64,000 nt of DNA from Octopus vulgaris (taxonomy: Eukaryota). The notes beneath the pieces are model-generated. The model saw nothing but the letters and a program-made list of their open reading frames with translations. It did not search any database and had not been told where the DNA came from. The stretch spans positions 65,038,001-65,102,000 of the forward strand of contig OX597816.1 of assembly GCA_951406725.2 (NCBI GenBank). Direction: 5' to 3'. Below are positions 10,436 through 64,000 of the stretch, in pieces (position 1 is the first letter of the stretch; every line of letters starts with the position of its first letter). Made by a program: the position numbers and the translations under genes.

Positions 10436-10635
10436 CATTTACATATTTCCATACGTATGTATATGCGTGTGTACATATATATCTATATGCCTATATGTAT
10501 GTATATATGGTATCATTATAAGTATATAGGGAGGCATATAGACATACATACAGTCAGACAAGTAAGTATTAAGTAGGTACGTAGGTAGGTATGAGTGATA
10601 GATATATATATATGTAAGTATATAATATATATATA

Positions 10636-11237
10636 TTTGCCAGCTAAGTGTGACGTCATGTACAGAACAGTGCCCCAGAAGACATCTCTTCCAGCTGGCA
10701 AACGACACACAGTCTGTGTCCGTTCGTATTTGGGAGGGAAGAGATCATCGTTCCAATTTTTAGCCTTACGTCGTACACACGGAGTCGAGTTTCTGGGTTG
10801 TCACCCGTCCTCAGCGCGTGTTAATTACTAGCTAGTGATGAGATCTCATTCCACTCGCAAGTTACCATATACATTTCTAGCGACTCACTGATCTCGTAAA
10901 AAAAGTGATATATTAAATCTCTGAGCGAGATATAAACAGTGGCGATATGAAAACGTAACATACATTTGCCAACTAATTGTGTCATCCTATTCAGGTTAGT
11001 GCTACTGTTGTTTATAGCCCCAGAATGACATCAAGGATAGAGCTGGGAGCCATGACCTCCCTTCGCAAATACTAATCAGACACAGACTGTGTGTCGTTAG
11101 CCAGCTGGAAGAGGTGCCTTCCTGGGTCTATAAACAACAGTAGCACTGTCCTGTATAGGAGGCCACACTTCGTTGGCAAATATATGTTACGATTCCGTAC
11201 CGCTACTGTTTATATCTCGCTCAAAGATTTAATATAA
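10636..11237. mobile_element. family P1 hammerhead-containing repeat: ~1.3 tandem monomers followed by an inverted partial monomer
   Basis: TTTGCCA.CTAA.TG recurs at 10636 and 10965. 10908-11032 is inverted against 11110-11237. Homologous to 42402-42865 and 48030-48627. Confidence 0.85.
10776..10820 (-). ncRNA. minimal type I hammerhead ribozyme motif (P1)
   Basis: Minus strand: CACGCG-CTGAGGA-C-GGGT-GACA-ACCC-A-GAAA-CTCGA-CTC-CGTGTG. Confidence 0.7.
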
Positions 11238-11750
11238 CATAGTTGTATTTCATAACATTGTTTCTCACTAGCTATAGCTTACTATATGACTTCAATATAT
11301 TTTTATGTGTGTGTATGTATATATATATATATACATGTGTGTGTGTGTGTGTGTGAGCGTGTATGGACAATAATAGAGGATAAAACTTTTTTTTTTAAAT
11401 CTTTTATCAGTACCCAGTATATAAAATGGAACTAAATGAGGTGAAAACTATATCACGGGAGAGCCTTTTGGCAATCCCAGAAATTAGGCTAATACAGAAC
11501 TATCTATTTTATTAAAAATTTCCGTTAGCTTGTCGAATTCAACGCGTGTGTTTCTGACTTCTTTGAGTGGTGAGACGATTTAGCGTCTATTTCTCAGCAT
11601 ATAGGCAAGAAAAGTTTTTTCTAAGCCCTAATTATAATTATATACATATGTGTGTGTGTGTGTACGTGTGTGTGTATAGATGTATGCTTGTATGTATGTA
11701 TGTATGTATGTATGTATGTATGTATGTATGTGTGTACATACATACATAAC

Positions 11751-13115: not shown

Positions 13116-13165
<50 letters not shown>

Positions 13166-13169
<4 letters not shown>

Positions 13170-13375
13170 ATCCAAACAAGAAAACACAGAAAAAAAACAC
13201 AGCAACGCGAGGACGTGGAACAATTAAAGTATTATTTGACGCTCAGGAAAGAAGGGAAGGAGGGTTTAACGTTTCGAGCGGAGCTCTTCGTCGGAAACAA
13301 AGGAGAAGGAAAGATCCCGAGAAGGGAAGACAGAGGAAAATATTTTTTTTGCTGGTGGTGCTCAAGAAATCACAT
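13166..13375 (-). mobile_element. family P2 Penelope-like short element with HHR at 13264-13298
   Basis: Minus strand: GTTT-CCGACGA-A-GAGC-TCC-GCTC-GAAA-CG-TT-AAAC. Near-identical to 32698-32890. Flanked by (TA)n. Confidence 0.75.
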
Positions 13376-13725
13376 GTTGAAAGATATATATATATATATA
13401 TATATACGCGCGTGTATGTGTGTATGTATGTTTGTGTGTGTGCATATATAAATTCTCATACCCCTGCATATAGAGATGTATGTCTACATGTATGTTTCTG
13501 TGTTTCCATGAGTGTATGAGTATCACTGTTGGATAGTCTAAGATTATGAGACTAAATGCTAGCAACTCTATAGGTTTTATTCAATATTTGCCTTGCCTCT
13601 CTGCACGTCGATCAAATATCATATATGTGTTGTTGGGCTTCGTCATATTAAATACTTAACCAACTTCTACTAATATTTGTGGTCTTCTGCCAGGTTTTGA
13701 ATAAATATTTGATACGGTAAATAAG

Positions 13726-32702: not shown

Positions 32703-32890
32703 ATCCAAACATGAAAACACAAAGAGAAAACACAACACGAGGACGTGGAACAAGTATAGTATTATTGGACGCTCAGGAAAGAAGGAAAGAAGGAGGGTTT
32801 AACGTTTCGAACGGAGCTCTTCGTCAGAAACATAGGAAAAGGAAAGATCCAAAGAAGGGAAGACGGAGGAAAAAAATCGCCAACGCGGTC
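32698..32890 (-). mobile_element. family P2 Penelope-like short element
   Basis: Near-identical to 13166-13375. (TA)n at the 3' end. Confidence 0.8.
32797..32831 (-). ncRNA. minimal type I hammerhead ribozyme motif (P2)
   Basis: Minus strand: GTTT-CTGACGA-A-GAGC-TCC-GTTC-GAAA-CG-TT-AAAC. Stem I GTTT/AAAC, palindromic AACGTT stem III. Confidence 0.75.
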
Positions 32891-33392: not shown

Positions 33393-34390
33393 TCAGGTCA
33401 TCCCATAAGTTCTGTCCGAATTTTAAATGAAGAAAACAAGTGATCAAATGTTATTTTAATGGAAATTTAATCATCGATGTTCTTTCCCTGATTATCTATG
33501 ACTTCCCTCAATCTATTTACAAGTTTTTTAATCCCATTAACTTAAAACTCTTTTGGTTTCAAAGCGAAGAACTCTGAAATGTCAGTTTCGACCTCCTCCT
33601 GGCTTGCGAAAGTTATGTCCCCCAAATTATTCTGTAAGCTAGGAAACAAATGGTAATCTCACGGAGCAAGGTCGGGAGAATAAGGTGGATGAGTATTTTT
33701 TTCCCAACCAAGCTCTTCTATTTTCTGTGATCGCGCATTGTCCTGATGAAACATCACTCCTTTTCGATTCACTAAAGCGAGTATTTTTCTTCAAAGCTTG
33801 GTTCAAAAGCTCTAATTGCTGACAGTAGACTTGAGCATTGATTGTTGCATTAGGTGGTAACAATTCAAAGTGAATTACTCCTTTGCAATCCCACCAGATT
33901 GAGAGAAGAACCTTTTTCCCATGAAGTTCCCTTCTTGGTTGTGTTTGAGCATTTTCCCTTTTACCAATCCACTGTTTACGACGTTTAACACTTAAATAGA
34001 AGATCCATTTTTCGTCAGCAGTCACAAGTCTATCCAAAAAGGGTGAAATGAATTCGCGAAAATGGAGAGAAGAGCAGATATCAACACGGGATTTGCGGTT
34101 GCTTTCGAACAATTCATGAGGCACCCATTTTCCAAGTTTAGGAACCTTTCCAAGTTGTTGAAGATAACGATGAATAGTTGTATGGTTTGAACTAAGCTTT
34201 ATTGCCAATTCTTCAACTGATAATGCAGGATTTTCTTCAAGTAATGCCTCAAGGAGCTTATCAGCAAACTCAACTTGACGTCCTGTTCGATCTTCATCTT
34301 CAAGACTGAAATCTCCACTTCTGAATTTTGCAAACCATCTTCTGCACGTTCTGTCATTCATGCACTCTTTCCCATAAACTGAGTATATGT
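33393..34390 (-). mobile_element. mariner (DD34D) transposon, 5'-truncated; transposase pseudogene at ~33470-34385
   Basis: WFAKFRSGDFSLEDEDRTGR, WVPHEL, LVTADEKWIFY, KVLLSIWWDCKG; after frameshifts HQDNA and PPYSPDLAP*DYHLF. TA + TIR TCAGGTCATCCCATAAGTTCTGTCCGA at 33391. Confidence 0.92.
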
Positions 34391-34511
34391 TTCTTTGTAA
34401 GTCTAGTACTTATTCTATCGGTCTCTTTTGCCGAACCGGTAAGTGATGGGGACGTAAACACACCAGCATCGGTTGTCAAGCGATGTTGGTGGGACAAACA
34501 CAGACACACAA

Positions 34512-42401: not shown

Positions 42402-42865
42402 TATTTGTCTAAATGTGGCAGTCCCATAGAAGACGATGCTATTGTTCTTGTTAGCCCTAGGAAAACATCTCCAGCTGGCTAATGACACACAGTCTGTGTT
42501 CGATTAGTATTTGCAAAGCGAGGTCATCGGTACCGTCCCTAGATTTACGTGATAGCGCATATAGTAATTTGTGAGTGGAATGAGTTTTTATCACCAGCTG
42601 GTGATTATCACACACTGAAGGCGGGTAACTACCTAGAAACACAATTTGTGTACATCATGTACGGCTAGAGATGTGAGCTGTGACGCCCCAACCCTTGCAA
42701 ATACTAATCGGACACAGACAGTGTATCGTTAACCAGCTGGAGGAGATGTCTTCCTGGGGCTAAAAACAAGAGTAATCTCGTCCTCTATGGGACCACCACA
42801 TTTAGTTGGCAAATATATCTTAAGATTCCGCACTGGCAATATTTACCTCTCGCTCAGAGATTATA
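42402..42865. mobile_element. family P1 fold-back; decayed HHR on + at 42609-42652
   Basis: 42402-42553 is inverted against 42655-42811. CACACA-CTGAAGG-CGGGT-AACT-ACCT-A-GAAAC. Confidence 0.85.
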
Positions 42866-42976
42866 TATATATATACATATTTATATATATATTTATGTAT
42901 GTATGTGTGTATGTATGTATGTATGTATGTATGTATGTATGTATGTATGTATGTATGTATGTATGTATGTATGTAT

Positions 42977-47808: not shown

Positions 47809-48186
47809 CAATAAGAACCTTACAGTTCGAACGTAGCCAGCTTTGTAAACATACACACGTACACATAAACACGCATACAGATACATATTTATGCATACAT
47901 ACACACAGAGTGAAAGGATCAGATAATATCTATCTTTGCACATACATTTCATATCTCTCCTCAGGCATCCACTTGACTCTGCATGTATACTAGTATATGT
48001 GGTTTTCCTAGCATGATTTTCACCCAATTTTTGCCACCTTCATGTGGCTGACCCATATGGGGCGATGCTACTGTTATTTATAACTCCAGGAAGGCATCTC
48101 CACCAGCTGGCTAATGACACACTGTCTGTGCCCGATCAGTGTTTGCGAAGGGAAATCATTGTTTCCATCTCTATCCTTACGTGATA

Positions 48187-48231
48187 CACACGGAGCCGGG
48201 TTTCTGAGTGGTAACCCGTCATCAGCGTGTG
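48187..48231 (-). ncRNA. minimal type I hammerhead ribozyme motif (P1)
   Basis: Minus strand: CACACG-CTGATGA-C-GGGT-TACC-ACTC-A-GAAA-CCCGG-CTC-CGTGTG. Confidence 0.75.
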
Positions 48232-48424
48232 ACAATCACCGGCGAGGGATGAGATGTGATTCCAAATGCAAAATACTATATGATTTTTTCAGTGACAAAC
48301 TGTTGCTGGTATCGAAAAAGGAGAAACAAGTAATAATAAATCTCTGAGCGAGATGGTTTGTCACTGGAAAAAGCATATAGTACTTTGCGTTTGAAATCAC
48401 GTCTCATCCCTAGCCGGTGATTAT

Positions 48425-48469
48425 CACACGCTGATGACGGGTTACTATTCAGAAACCCGGGTCCGTGTG
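48425..48469 (+). ncRNA. minimal type I hammerhead ribozyme (P1), predicted cleavage after 48463
   Basis: CACACG-CTGATGA-C-GGGT-TACT-ATTC-A-GAAA-CCCGG-GTC-CGTGTG. 6-bp stem I, palindromic ACCCGGGT stem III, GUC site. Confidence 0.85.
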
Positions 48470-48897
48470 TATCACGTAAGGCTAGAGATGGGAACCATGA
48501 TTTCCCTTCGCAAATATAAATCGGGCACAGATAGTGTGTCGTTAACCAGCTGGAGGAGATGTCTTCCTGGAGCTGTAAACTACAGTAGCATCGTCCCATA
48601 TGGGTCACCCACATTTAGGTGGCAAATATACTTCACGACATATATATAAGAATTTATTTTCGTATTGAGATAAAAAAAAAAACAAGGCTGTGTAGATATT
48701 AGAATATATCTCATTACGAAAAAAATTCTTACATACACACGCTGACATAGAACCAACGTTGAACCCCTTATTCGCAAAATTACCGAATCTGGAATTTAAC
48801 TATGGTCTGTCTATAGCACTTATTCACCATTACCTGACACCTTTGGGTCTCATTGATACCATTATCTCTTATATATATATATATATATATATATATG

Positions 48898-52412: not shown

Positions 52413-55212
52413 GGTCCTGCTGTCATATTCAAACTCAGTATGTGAAACTCAAATTGTACACATAAGACAACTGAATATCGTCATATGCACTACATATCGC
52501 CCACCAGACGCCCCAAAACACTCAGGCATGTTTGAAGACTGCCTAACAAAAATAGGAGAAGTCCTCACCAACCTTGAACAGCACAACAGTGTATTCTTCA
52601 TGGGTGACTTTAACCTCCCCAATGTGGAATGGCCTGGGGGGCAGATGCTCCCAGGGATGACACACCATCAGCAGGCACAGGTGGAGTCCCTGCTCCATCT
52701 CACAAATACCTCTTTCATGGAGCAAATAGTTCTGCAACCAACAAGGGCAGATAATATACTGGATCTCTGCTTCACAAACAATATGGATATTATCCATAAT
52801 GTTAATGTGATGCCGACAATGATCTCGGATCACAACATAATAGAGCTGTCTATGTATGGAACAAAAGCCCCCGCAGACACACAGCCTATACGAAGCACCC
52901 ACCATCTCTACAACTTAAACTTTCATAAAGCCAACTGGAAGTCGATTGAGAAAGAGATCCTCAAACAGGATTGGCCTGAATGTCTCTCCACACCGGACAT
53001 AAACATGAAACACAAACACTTCATGTCCATAATACAAGCCATATGTGACAAATATGTCCCAATGTGCAGGGCCAGCACACACAAGAACAAAAACAGGATC
53101 CCTAGAGAAAGGAGGATTCTTATGAGACGACGGACAAGGATTGCAAACCGCCTGAGCAAGCACACCAAAAGTGGTGAGAAGTCTCGGCTCGAAAGAATGC
53201 TAATGGAAACTGAGAAAAGTCTACATCAGTCCCATGAAAAGGAGAGAGCAGATAAAGAAGCTTGGGTAATAGAAAATATAAAATCAAACCCTAAAGCTTT
53301 CTTTAAGTTTGCCAAAGAGACAGCCACAGTGCACCAGAGAATAGGACCTCTCTTCCAAAAAGATGGCTCTCTCACAGGAAATCCCACGAGGATAAGTGAA
53401 ATACTGAACGAACAGTTTCAAAGTGCGTTCACTACACCTCTAGGACACAGGCAAGTAAACAACCCAGAATTCTTTGCCACTTTACCAGCGGCCAAAGAGA
53501 CAAAAATTGAGTACATCAACATCGAAGAAGATGATATCACACTAGCCATTGATGAGATTGACACAAACTCAGCTGCTGGACCTGATGGATTCCCAGCGAT
53601 CCTTCTCAAATCGTGCAAACGAGCCCTTGCAAAACCGCTACAGCTTCTTTTTCAGAGCTTTCTTGCAAGTGGTAAGCTCCCAGTCAAACTGAAAGAGGGG
53701 GAAATATGCCCTATCCATAAGGGAGGTAGCAGAGCAGATGCTAAAAATTATAGGCCTATCTCTCTGACCTCACACATCAGCAAAGTCATGGAACGAATAG
53801 TCCGTAAGAAACTAATCATGTTCCTTGAAGAAAATGACTTACTGTCTGACACCCAGCATGGATTTCGACCAGGTAGAGGCTGCCTAACACAGCTCCTGCA
53901 ACACTATGACTGGGTGTTGAAACAGCTACTAAATGGCTCAAATGTGGATGTAATATATCTTGACTTTGCAAAAGCCTTTGATAAAGTCGACCATGGTATG
54001 ATCTGTCACAAACTGCGTGGTCTCGGCATAGGCGGGAAACTTGGAGAGTGGCTGCACAACTTCCTAAAAGACAGAAAACAGGCAGTTGTGAGCAATGGAG
54101 CCACCTCCAGGGAAACGCAAATAACAAGCGGTGTCCCACAGGGCACTGTCTTGGGGCCACTGATGTTCATAGTGGCCCTTTCAGACATGCCTTCAGTTGC
54201 TACGATGACCACCCTTGCTAGCTATGCAGATGACACAAAAGTCTCCCACGCAATACAAAACCCTGAAAATATTGCGCATCTGCAACATGAGCTGGACACA
54301 ATATACAGGTGGGCTGAGGACAACAACATGCAGTTTAATGCAGGTAAGTTCCAGGCCCTGCGCTACTGGCACACAAAGGTAAATGACGTGAAGACTGGAT
54401 ACACTGGCCCAGGAAGAATTGCAATCCCTGAGTCAAAATCAGTGCGTGACCTGGGCATTGACATGAGCAATGATGCATCTTTCCAAATGCATATTGCTAA
54501 TCTGGTGATAAAATGCAGACGGCTAGCTGGATGGATTCTCCGAACTTTCAGAACAAGAGAGAAGGAGACACTGATGGTCCTATGGAAAACATTTGTCCTC
54601 AGCCGCTTGGACTACTGCTCCCAACTTTGGTCACCACACAATATAAAACAAACAGCAGAACTCGAAGCAACTCAGAGAAGCTACACAAAGAAAATCGTCT
54701 CAATGCAAAATGTCAGCTACTGGGAAAGACTGAAGGTATTAAACCTCTTCTCCCTGGAGTGGAGGCGGGAGAGATATGCAGTGATATACATCTGGAAAAT
54801 CCTGGAGGGTCTTGTCCCAAACTTTGGCATTCAAAGTTACTCCAACCGCAGAACGGGCGCCGCTGCGTGGTGCCAAGGATTCCAACATCACCATCAAAAT
54901 ACAGGTCCAGATACTGCAGCAGCTTGGGTTTCAGAGGACCACAGCTCTTTAACATCCTCCCTAAATGCCTGAGAGACTTACATGGTGTGGATGTGGGTTT
55001 CTTTAAAACTAAACTGGATCTCTTCTTGTTGGGAGTCCCAGATGAACCTACCTCACGACAGGAGACACGGATGCGGGCAGCAGCATCGAACTCCCTTGTT
55101 GATCAAGTGCCACGTATCAGAGGTGGATTCACAAACTAGTGTAGCTCGTTCAGCGGTGGTGCCCCAGCATGGCCGCGGCCTTCGGGCTAAAACATTTTTA
55201 AGGATTTAAGGA
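52413..55212 (+). mobile_element. CR1-group LINE, 5'-truncated, young, inserted in (TA)n
   Basis: Sharp GC shift. Reading frame is open from 52414. Short 3' UTR ending (TTTAAGGA)2. (TA)n on both sides. Confidence 0.93.
52528..55139 (+). CDS. LINE ORF2: C-terminal half of apurinic endonuclease + reverse transcriptase; one frameshift near 54856
   Basis: YRPP, MGDFNLP, PTR..NILDL, SDH (APE). GPDG, NYRPISLTS, QHGFR, YLDFAKAFDKVDH, SGVPQGTVLGP, YADDTK (RT). The C-terminus continues in the 54513-55139 frame (GRRCVVP...GPQLFNILP...VPDEP). Confidence 0.9.
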
Positions 55213-61332: not shown

Positions 61333-61962
61333 AGTGTGTATACATAATCAAAATAAGCAACAAGTATCTCCAAGGTAGAGTAGTACAATTGTTTCATGCT
61401 ACTTCATTTTATTAAACACTGTAAGTATTACATCAGTTTTAAAATGTCGAGCAATCTGCAGCCACTTATAGAATTTTCCAATTAAACGGACAATGCACAT
61501 TTTTATTCCTATTTCATTTGCCAACATTATAAAGAGGGTAAATATATAGACGGAGAGGTTGATTTCATTCTTAAGAACATGGTAGTAGTATGTTCACTCT
61601 CCGTCTGTAGATTTTATCATTGACTTCACTTTGTTATTTAGATCTGTCAGTGGGGAGGGGGTTTTATTCGTGGTTGAATGGAGACAAACAAGAATTTTTT
61701 TCTTTTTATAGATATAGGAAGGGGGTAGTACAAATGCCAAAACCATAAACCCATCCCCATTTTGAGGAATTCAGTTTAGATATATTTGATTGTATTATAG
61801 CAAAAAGCTAGTAGGTTGAAGTTAGAGGGGTAGGGGGAACAGAGGCTACTAATGCTCTGGAGGTTTACAATGTCCCTTACCATTTAACAGCCAGATTCTA
61901 TATTAAGAAATTTACAAAAGGATTTCAATAAATATTAATATTTTATATAGGGATAGAAACTA

Positions 61963-62470
61963 TAGAAATCATTTCATATTTATATAAATATATATATATC
62001 CATTAATATAGAATCATAATTAGCTAGTAAATGGTGATTTATCTTATTAATGAGTTGAATTAAAAGAAAAAGGTTAGACATAATATTTACTAACTGTTGA
62101 AGAAAACTTTATCAATTTAGCACATATATCAGGAGTCAATAAGATATATTAAAAGTGATGTAAGGGAGGTAATCAAGATGAACCAAGTAATTTCTCTAAA
62201 TATATAGAAGTTTTTGAAATCATTTCATATTTATATATATATATATATATATATCCATTTCTATTAATATAGAATCATAATTAGCTAGTAAATGGTAATT
62301 TATTTTATTAATGAGTTGAATTAAAAGAATAAGTTAAACATAATATTTACTAACTGTAGAAAAAAACTTTATCAATTTAGCAAATATATCAGGAGTCAAT
62401 AAGATATATTAAAAAGTAATGGAAGGGAGGTAAGCAAGATGAATCAAGTAATTTCCCTAGATATATAGAA
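61963..62470 (+). repeat. tandem duplication of a ~255-bp unit
   Basis: GAAATCATTTCATATTTATATA...TTAATATAGAATCATAATTAGCTAGTAAATGGT...CAGGAGTCAATAAGATATATTAAAA occurs twice. Confidence 0.92.
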
Positions 62471-62984
62471 TTCTCTGCAATCCTTTGTGGCTGTAATACC
62501 ATGAATGCTTCTGATTAACGCTTTTGTTCCCAATATACCCTATTGCATTTTGGGTGATAGACATTAGTGAAACACGTGGTAGTTTCACAGTACCGATTTG
62601 AATGTTGAACAGACGCGTTAAGGTTGAATTTATTGGTATGATAATATATAGCAGTTCTAGGTTGTGTGCGTTACGGTATAGGCTATTGGTATGTTTTAGA
62701 ATTGTGTCTTGTCCCACGATGATGAGTGAATTACGGCCAAGTTGTATTTAATATCTCTCATAAATAATAGCAGTGGACTCGGAGATTTCATTGTATTAGT
62801 GTGGGTCGTGTGAGGAGCAATTATCACTTTATGGAAGTTTCACAAGTTAATTGATTTTGGTGGCTTGATGATGTTTTGCGAGTGGTCACAGTGGGATTGA
62901 GAGTGACGTCACCATTTAATGGGGTTGTAATTTTAGTTAGCAGATCGTTAGAGATGTTGAGAGGCGGAGAAAAATTGTTTTTGT

Positions 62985-63551: not shown

Positions 63552-64000
63552 TATGAACGAATACCATGCCTATAACAAACATAACGGCTTATAAAGTGAA
63601 ATTAATATCCTGACCACTGCCTAGATGGCCTTTTCGAAATCACTACTGCATATACATGTCATGTTTCAGTAAATGCATTTGCCATATTCTGAACGCCTTT
63701 CTTCCCTGGGCATGGATACATTGAAACTCCGACGTCTGGCAACTGACATGGCAGACACCCATACAATTATTAACCATCTTACAAACAATAACTCTGAGCC
63801 CCTTTTCAAACTCCGCATGTCTAACACCCGTGGACATGTTTACAAAGTCAGAAAACAGCTCAGCTCCCATGCAACACTATTACTGAAACATGACATGTAT
63901 ATGCAGCAGTGATTTCGAGAAGGCCAGCTTGGCATTGGTCAGGATATTAATTTCACTTTCTACGCAGTTATGTTTGTTAAAGGCATGGTATTCGTCCATA
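63552..64000. mobile_element. MITE-like inverted repeat (~120-bp arms) enclosing a CR1-type LINE fragment at 63673-63871 (+)
   Basis: 63552-63672 is inverted against 63880-64000. The insert translates to HLPYSERLSSLGMDTLKLRRL..D...NTRGHVYKVRKQ. Confidence 0.85.

Follow-up and report, generated by a model that had tools for sequence, protein, structure and literature searches.

An old two-armed insertion of a probable Penelope-mobilised retrozyme in the Octopus vulgaris genome, and its young multimeric relatives

Introduction

The closest described counterparts of the sequence studied here are the animal non-LTR retrozymes. As portrayed in the main text of PMC7229834, those of coral, Mytilus (~350-390 bp) and axolotl (~350 nt) are non-coding tandem units of about 350 nt, each with one type I hammerhead whose stem III is palindromic; the predicted RNA is strongly self-paired, the units occur as dimers to multimers, and they are found together with Penelope-like elements. 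The octopus family described below is alike in all of these traits, with a GC content of 44-46%. Retrozyme circles have been seen by northern blot (same text). Back-to-back arms, a tail and fixed 3′ ends distinguish the octopus family; no such description was met in that main text, from which the word "inverted" is absent. The octopus insertion ends lie in (TA)n.

Vertebrate retrozymes (bioRxiv 10.64898/2026.07.22.740005) likewise comprise monomers, dimers and multimers within one family, most families having at most 7 units, and a Penelope link has been proposed for them too. There, the link consists of co-occurrence and pLTR homology, whereas in the octopus it consists of insertion architecture, a homologous pLTR not having been found in two coding clades. 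The same preprint favours local amplification, with unequal crossing-over as the route to arrays; the young octopus arrays, in contrast, look born at insertion.

With Penelope-like elements, as described in the main passages of PMC8557442, PMC11167929 (the anole protein PAc) and PMC4209133, the octopus family shares partial tandems, an inverted 5′-truncated arm, a tail at one end and AT-rich targets (all listed in PMC8557442), as well as two internal reverse transcription start sites and a dimer-type hammerhead. It differs from them in the absence of an open reading frame (ORF), the whole unit being ~355 nt, and in a tail of ~46-50 nt versus 30-40 nt. In contrast to their minimal pLTR form, the octopus hammerhead is of canonical type I, with 6 bp in stem I and a complete palindrome in stem III, and the arms run to 7-10 units.

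Mobilization by Penelope machinery and the synthesis of more-than-unit cDNA from circles have been proposed, without demonstration, in the relevant passages of PMC7229834 and PMC7761336 and in the preprint. No cephalopod retrozyme or footprint of this kind was found in titles and abstract openings of the openly accessible literature; an octopus repeat annotation (PMC13282606) makes no mention of ribozymes in passages of its main text.

Results

Architecture of the locus

The window, i.e. the whole stretch of DNA that was analysed, comprises 64,000 nt. It contains three copies of the element, composed of the following features.

10600..10630, no strand: (TA)-rich target, adjoining the 3′ end of arm 1
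10631..11032, minus strand: arm 1, 5′-truncated, 1.2 units (unit 290-357, a full unit with deletions, unit 1-5), tail absent
10820-10776, minus strand: single type I hammerhead, core CUGAGGA...GAAA, with a C.A mismatch at the base of stem II
10965..11032, minus strand: partial upstream unit of 68 nt, the source of an apparent monomer "restart"
11033..11240, plus strand: arm 2, inverted and 5′-truncated, unit 210-357 plus tail, hammerhead absent
11181..11240, plus strand: tail of 60 nt, corresponding to the beginning of the next unit, in arm 2 only
42409..42869: second copy, with divergent arms on the minus (unit 202-349) and plus (unit 107-357, tailed) strands and a decayed hammerhead
48027..48638: third copy, a member of subfamily B, whose divergent arms measure 0.91 and 0.79 unit
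48181-48239, minus strand, and 48417-48475, plus strand: hammerheads of the third copy, with CUC and GUC triplets, respectively

At the locus of interest (10631-11240) the two arms, of 1.2 and 0.6 units, are joined 5′ to 5′ with no gap between them. Compared with the majority sequence of subfamily A, arm 1 is 81.7% identical (gaps included) and arm 2 is 92.8% identical. All three copies in the window have the same back-to-back layout.

An earlier note on this DNA had described a tandem monomer of ~345-360 nt with one hammerhead per unit and no ORF. The sequence TTTGCCA.CTAA is indeed present at both 10636 and 10965, and a unit of 353-358 nt is characteristic of the family. At the locus, this spacing is only 329 nt, because the copy has lost ~28 nt relative to the family unit, and the supposed second unit ends after 68 nt, where the inversion begins. 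There is no tandem array at the locus, and Tandem Repeats Finder placed no ~350-nt array in the window. The absence of an ORF was correctly reported, since stop-free stretches at the locus do not exceed 69 codons. The sequence at 48338, which had been taken for the same monomer junction, is homologous (48338-48354) but is no junction; it corresponds to unit ~34-50, where a 0.9-unit arm has its 5′ end.

One hammerhead per unit is a property of the young subfamilies; the locus has a single one, on the minus strand, with a predicted cut site between 10782 and 10781. A G>C change at 10784 has converted its GUC triplet into CUC and broken the palindrome of stem III, and an Rfam search at the locus gave no match at E<=10. 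The earlier note had also predicted that transcripts would be cut into monomers. This is impossible at the locus, because its sole hammerhead is broken; for the young family, with its true multimers and an intact type I hammerhead in each unit, the sequences make such processing plausible. The folding of the locus copy (z -1.4) is no better than that of shuffled sequences, and the copy was assigned to old cluster A (88%). The locus is an old, damaged insertion with two arms, a dead copy of a ~355-nt hammerhead element that encodes no protein, and in itself an ordinary decayed repeat.

The remainder of the window holds several other features. At 32805-32827 (minus strand) there is a different, minimal Penelope-type hammerhead (core CUGACGA...GAAA, then a short palindrome), located in a repeat shared with 13116-13445; similar motifs occur at several other genomic loci. 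An Rfam search of the whole window returned microsatellite-driven miRNA matches, and no hammerhead was among the 150 of 199 matches listed. A LINE at 52414-54969 (plus strand) is free of stops over 852 codons and includes endonuclease and RVT_1 domains, and 33642-34409 (minus strand) is a fragment of a Mariner-type transposase (Transposase_1, HTH_48). Further short inverted repeats lie between microsatellites (11633-11905/12348-12613, 38894-39036/59319-59735, 63552-64000), and are possibly other Penelope-mobilised elements. At 61953-62486 there are 1.9 tandem copies of a 261-nt unit.

The family and its subfamilies

The search for relatives covered 2.8 Gb in 227 contigs. Two queries yielded 1435 and 4098 first-look candidates, of which 40 were scored for each, and a 13-nt hammerhead motif gave 654 exact matches in the genome compared with 10 for the reversed control, which places the repeat well above chance expectation. 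A set of 106 hammerhead-anchored pieces fell into three old clusters, mutually 75-85% identical, whose members differ on average by 8-12% from their own majority. Among 191 old arms at 117 loci, 59 are longer than one unit and 9 include two cut sites; the longest has 1.8 units, so that no arm attains two.

In the subfamily majorities the longest stop-free frames have 77-99 codons, and none is common between subfamilies; a coding origin of the tail was rejected, as no reading frame is conserved across subfamilies. The unit is thus non-coding, with a GC content below 50%, as in retrozymes. The family also contains tandem units, from dimers to multimers, of a size within the 150-450 nt typical of animal non-LTR retrozymes, although neither the locus nor its subfamily does. 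Judged by its sequence, the family fits the definition of an animal non-LTR retrozyme, a class which is already known.

Two other groups were observed. A distant subfamily of the element (L209-L238), with 117 exact motif matches, is distinguished by its stem I and by a shorter palindrome, and also forms inverted pairs. A second short non-coding family (L139, L150 and L157, ~2300-2750) carries a related hammerhead with a longer stem II and an ACGCGT palindrome, and has (TA)n flanks.

The hammerhead and the predicted fold of the unit

The hammerhead of the young unit is of type I and has a canonical core with the G10.1-C11.1 pair. Its exact 33-nt sequence is present in 450 genomic copies (control, 0), and it aligns over the full length of Rfam Hammerhead_1 (RF00163) with E 1.9e-4 and 27.5 bits, which is below the gathering cut-off of 34. 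The old subfamilies lack the canonical G10.1-C11.1 pair (unpaired in 33 of 42 rows).

Conservation of pairing was analysed in 44 segments (42 distinct), chosen by hand across subfamilies and restricted to those free of indels. In the stems, 90.8% of the cells are paired, compared with 16-50% when the partners are slid. Eight pairs show two-sided changes, a count matched in 287 of 500 shuffles and so not above the control, while the cell counts and the covariation score were beaten in none of the 500. The hammerhead has been kept by compensatory changes across subfamilies that are 70-86% identical. Stem III is a self-complementary 8-mer, with the palindrome variants CTCGAG, CCCGGG, CTGCAG and CTATAG, and this fits the known dimer mechanism. 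The core switches from C3-G8 to U3-A8, the latter in subfamily Z; the U3-A8 variant is known in Schistosoma, according to the description in PMC4209133.

Monomers taken from cut site to cut site have a predicted fold in which the ribozyme closes a branched rod (z -7.1 for a young copy). The consensus fold of 18 monomers contains 65 pairs, 20 of them with two-sided change, and the circular subfamily majorities have folding z-scores of -4.8 to -6.1. The antisense strand scores alike, and therefore energy alone cannot fix the strand. The highly self-paired monomer RNA expected of a retrozyme is thus predicted for this family.

None of the sequencing runs recorded as RNA contained the element. Contigs from runs presumed to be RNA carry pieces of both old and young units; no control stretch accompanies them, and ends, strand and circles are not resolvable from contigs.

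Insertion footprints of the Penelope type

The earlier note had suggested re-insertion by a Penelope reverse transcriptase, and the insertion ends do bear the Penelope signature. In the 117 old loci, adjacent opposite-strand arms are divergent in 49 cases and convergent in none. The 3′ ends cluster at unit 5-13 (tail-less) and 55-60 (tailed), with 51 of 191 located elsewhere, so that the fixed ends lie 46-50 nt apart. A tailed arm is paired with a tail-less one in 25 of the 28 classifiable pairs out of 49 (p 1e-5), and in a young subfamily this holds for all 15 classifiable pairs (of 19). TA-rich DNA follows 79 of the 140 clustered 3′ ends (background, 11.7%). For the anole protein PAc in vitro, the tail corresponds to two internal start sites of reverse transcription (PMC11167929). 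Three young coding Penelope-like copies in the octopus genome display the same inverted, one-tail, (TA)n layout. The architecture of the family is that of Penelope-mobilised insertions, and we consider it very probable that this is a retrozyme-class element moved by Penelope machinery.

Young multimeric arrays

The earlier note had also called for a survey of longer tandem arrays. The old hammerhead motif was uninformative as a dimer query (1 pair among 654 motifs), the young subfamilies having a different stem II. A motif common to all subfamilies gave 457 pairs at unit spacing, and when it was required three times at 345-365-nt spacing, 65 windows were recovered (control, 0), counted as 37 multimer loci on 19 contigs.

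The main young unit is 353 nt long and ~74% identical to the locus copy. In 20 loci examined, the longest arms of the young subfamilies reach 5.0-10.2 units; near-identical runs extend to seven copies and one mixed run to ten. The arrays bear 2-8 intact hammerhead motifs, and multimers are often present on both sides of the same insertion. In the ten-unit array (L239, C4:13.62 Mb, subfamily Z), units of three types are mixed in a mosaic, and the hammerheads all have the U3-A8 core. An arm of at least 2 units is found in 7 of the first 18 distinct young loci listed, compared with none of 54 consecutively sampled old loci (Fisher p 2e-5). The old arrays may have either collapsed or never been long.

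Variation within arrays and the nature of the template

Variation was scored in 29 young loci chosen for having repeats. Divergence among units is 0.46% inside single arms, 0.84% from one arm to the other at a locus and 1.66% from locus to locus. At positions covered at least 3 times, 53 variants are fixed in the locus, 9 are partial and 96 are single; private fixed variants occur in 8 of the 29 loci, in up to 8 of 8 units. Assembly polishing may raise homogeneity, but presumably should not create alleles private to one locus. Of 15 informative insertions, 14 share one haplotype between their arms (15 of 294 mismatched control pairs). These data indicate that a young insertion is mostly a repetition of a single monomer haplotype, made at one time and in both directions, and rolling-circle copying would account for this most simply. 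Indels within 8 nt of the cut site are absent from all 109 units, so the cleavage junctions are unscarred. The 5′ ends do not pile up at the cut site: in young arms all phases are represented, and only 1 of 191 old arms ends exactly there.

The main competitor of this reading retains the same element and the same Penelope machinery, and differs in the template, which would be a linear, uncut multimer transcript of a homogeneous source array, or linear monomers copied by end-to-end jumping, with circles as a by-product. Uncut RNA likewise predicts unscarred junctions and no 5′ pile-up, and a linear template would explain why one locus (L245) has a variant at an equal distance from the 3′ end in both arms, and why another (L248), with two mixed haplotypes, and the Z array are mosaic. 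Linear copying with 5′ truncation, however, can only shorten arrays and would pass on new mutations in single units, yet fixed variants far outnumber partial ones, and private ones occur in 8 of the 29 loci. The preservation of the hammerhead by compensatory change also argues against it. Jumping between templates, as in other reverse transcriptases, would be expected to leave scarred junctions, and none were observed. In favour of a linear template, the anole protein works mainly on uncut RNA in vitro, and its insertion reaction can dispense with the hammerhead (PMC11167929). It also counts against the retrozyme scheme that, of 9 Xenopus retrozyme dimers, a single one was cleaved in vitro (bioRxiv 10.64898/2026.07.22.740005). 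On balance we regard a linear template as the main source of these arrays as unlikely, though it is the strongest of the alternatives.

Growth of the arrays after insertion, by unequal crossing-over in DNA between monomers or 1.x-mers that had themselves inserted via Penelope machinery, is improbable. The mosaic ten-unit Z array and a locus (L242) with variants in adjacent pairs do resemble local duplication. In contrast, long arrays are present in the youngest subfamily and absent from the old ones, they are dispersed over many contigs, and often both arms of a single insertion are multimeric. Moreover, the non-CpG variants in arms covered at least 4 times comprise 21 singletons and 3 shared variants, whereas gradual duplication predicts 15.0 +/- 2.3 singletons; the spectrum is star-like, although it consists of 24 sites only. 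The mosaic Z array and the partial variants in L248, L245 and L242 nevertheless suggest that some copies come from templates that are linear or multimeric, from template switching or from local duplication at a later time.

Candidate coding partners and the mobile unit

Two protein queries against the octopus genome led to young coding Penelope-like clades. One of them (L092-L095), to which the three coding copies with the one-tail layout belong, is open over as many as 1151 codons, with Atlas neighbours that are RT/GIY-YIG proteins and a Cys-rich linker as in the Neptune and Nematis clades; the long ORF gave no significant match in Pfam or PDB. An atypical hammerhead-like motif (CUGAUGC core, GAAAG) was noticed in its terminal repeat. 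The second clade (L289-L308) contains many frames of 778-908 codons; at C20:23.33-23.35 Mb its matches are spaced by 3-6 kb, which may represent a tandem of whole elements. The unit was not the terminal repeat in any of 54 coding Penelope-like loci of the two clades, and its local alignment with the pLTR of one clade was non-significant overall (p 0.02-0.42 over five rulers).

The surroundings of the unit were inspected in 60 loci, taken in list order from the 654-match motif search with four entries passed over; 55 of them belong to the family, 3 to a related short element, and 2 are unrelated. Sampled copies that run beyond unit position 1 read on into the unit's own 3′ end. Upstream, a Penelope-like protein query detected no sense-direction ORF in the 60 loci, and resemblance between flanks was confined to scattered repeats of other kinds and to two pairs that are nearly identical, with no family-wide flank. 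The mobile unit is therefore the ~355-mer itself, and not an autonomous Penelope-like element, in which an ORF for RT and GIY-YIG lies between pLTRs.

That the unit is a mere pLTR, and its copies truncated pieces of a coding Penelope-like element, as the earlier note had allowed for, would agree with the inverted arms, tail and (TA)n targets common to such elements, but is highly improbable and largely refuted by these upstream data, by the lack of any sampled copy serving as a terminal repeat, and by arrays of up to 10 units without an ORF.

Discussion

We consider the locus to be, probably, an old insertion of an animal non-LTR retrozyme that was mobilised by Penelope machinery and likely passed through a circular RNA; that the circle is the main template is, in our estimation, rather likely. 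In the scheme we propose, paired hammerheads would cleave multimeric transcripts to monomers, which would likely be circularised and likely be copied by a Penelope-type RT-endonuclease. Because the self-complementary stem III would need a second hammerhead, multimers would be cut and a monomer circle would stay closed. Like the anole protein in vitro (PMC11167929), the enzyme would nick both strands of AT-rich DNA and prime at two internal RNA sites, both arms being templated by one RNA molecule or by the cDNA of one arm. The reverse transcriptase would run for 0.1-7 turns on the circle and drop off at a random phase, and arrays would therefore arise at insertion. On balance we lean slightly towards this rolling-circle, target-primed reverse transcription as the process operating in vivo. 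A single 353-nt hammerhead circle would then serve the Penelope RT-endonuclease as template for priming from both strands of the target, with start sites separated by 46 nt, and back-to-back multimers would result from one event.

The enzyme that moves animal retrozymes, and the circle as their real template, have been proposals since 2014-2020. The octopus family ties a retrozyme to Penelope chemistry through its insertion footprints, and haplotype evidence suggests that its arrays derive from one repeated template. Near-identical young units and long open Penelope-like frames in the same genome make the proposed life cycle testable in vitro, and a role is suggested for the hammerheads that Penelope-like elements carry. 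If the scheme is correct, animal retrozyme arrays would be made at insertion from viroid-like circles, and the octopus would harbour a still-young family together with candidate enzymes in one genome.
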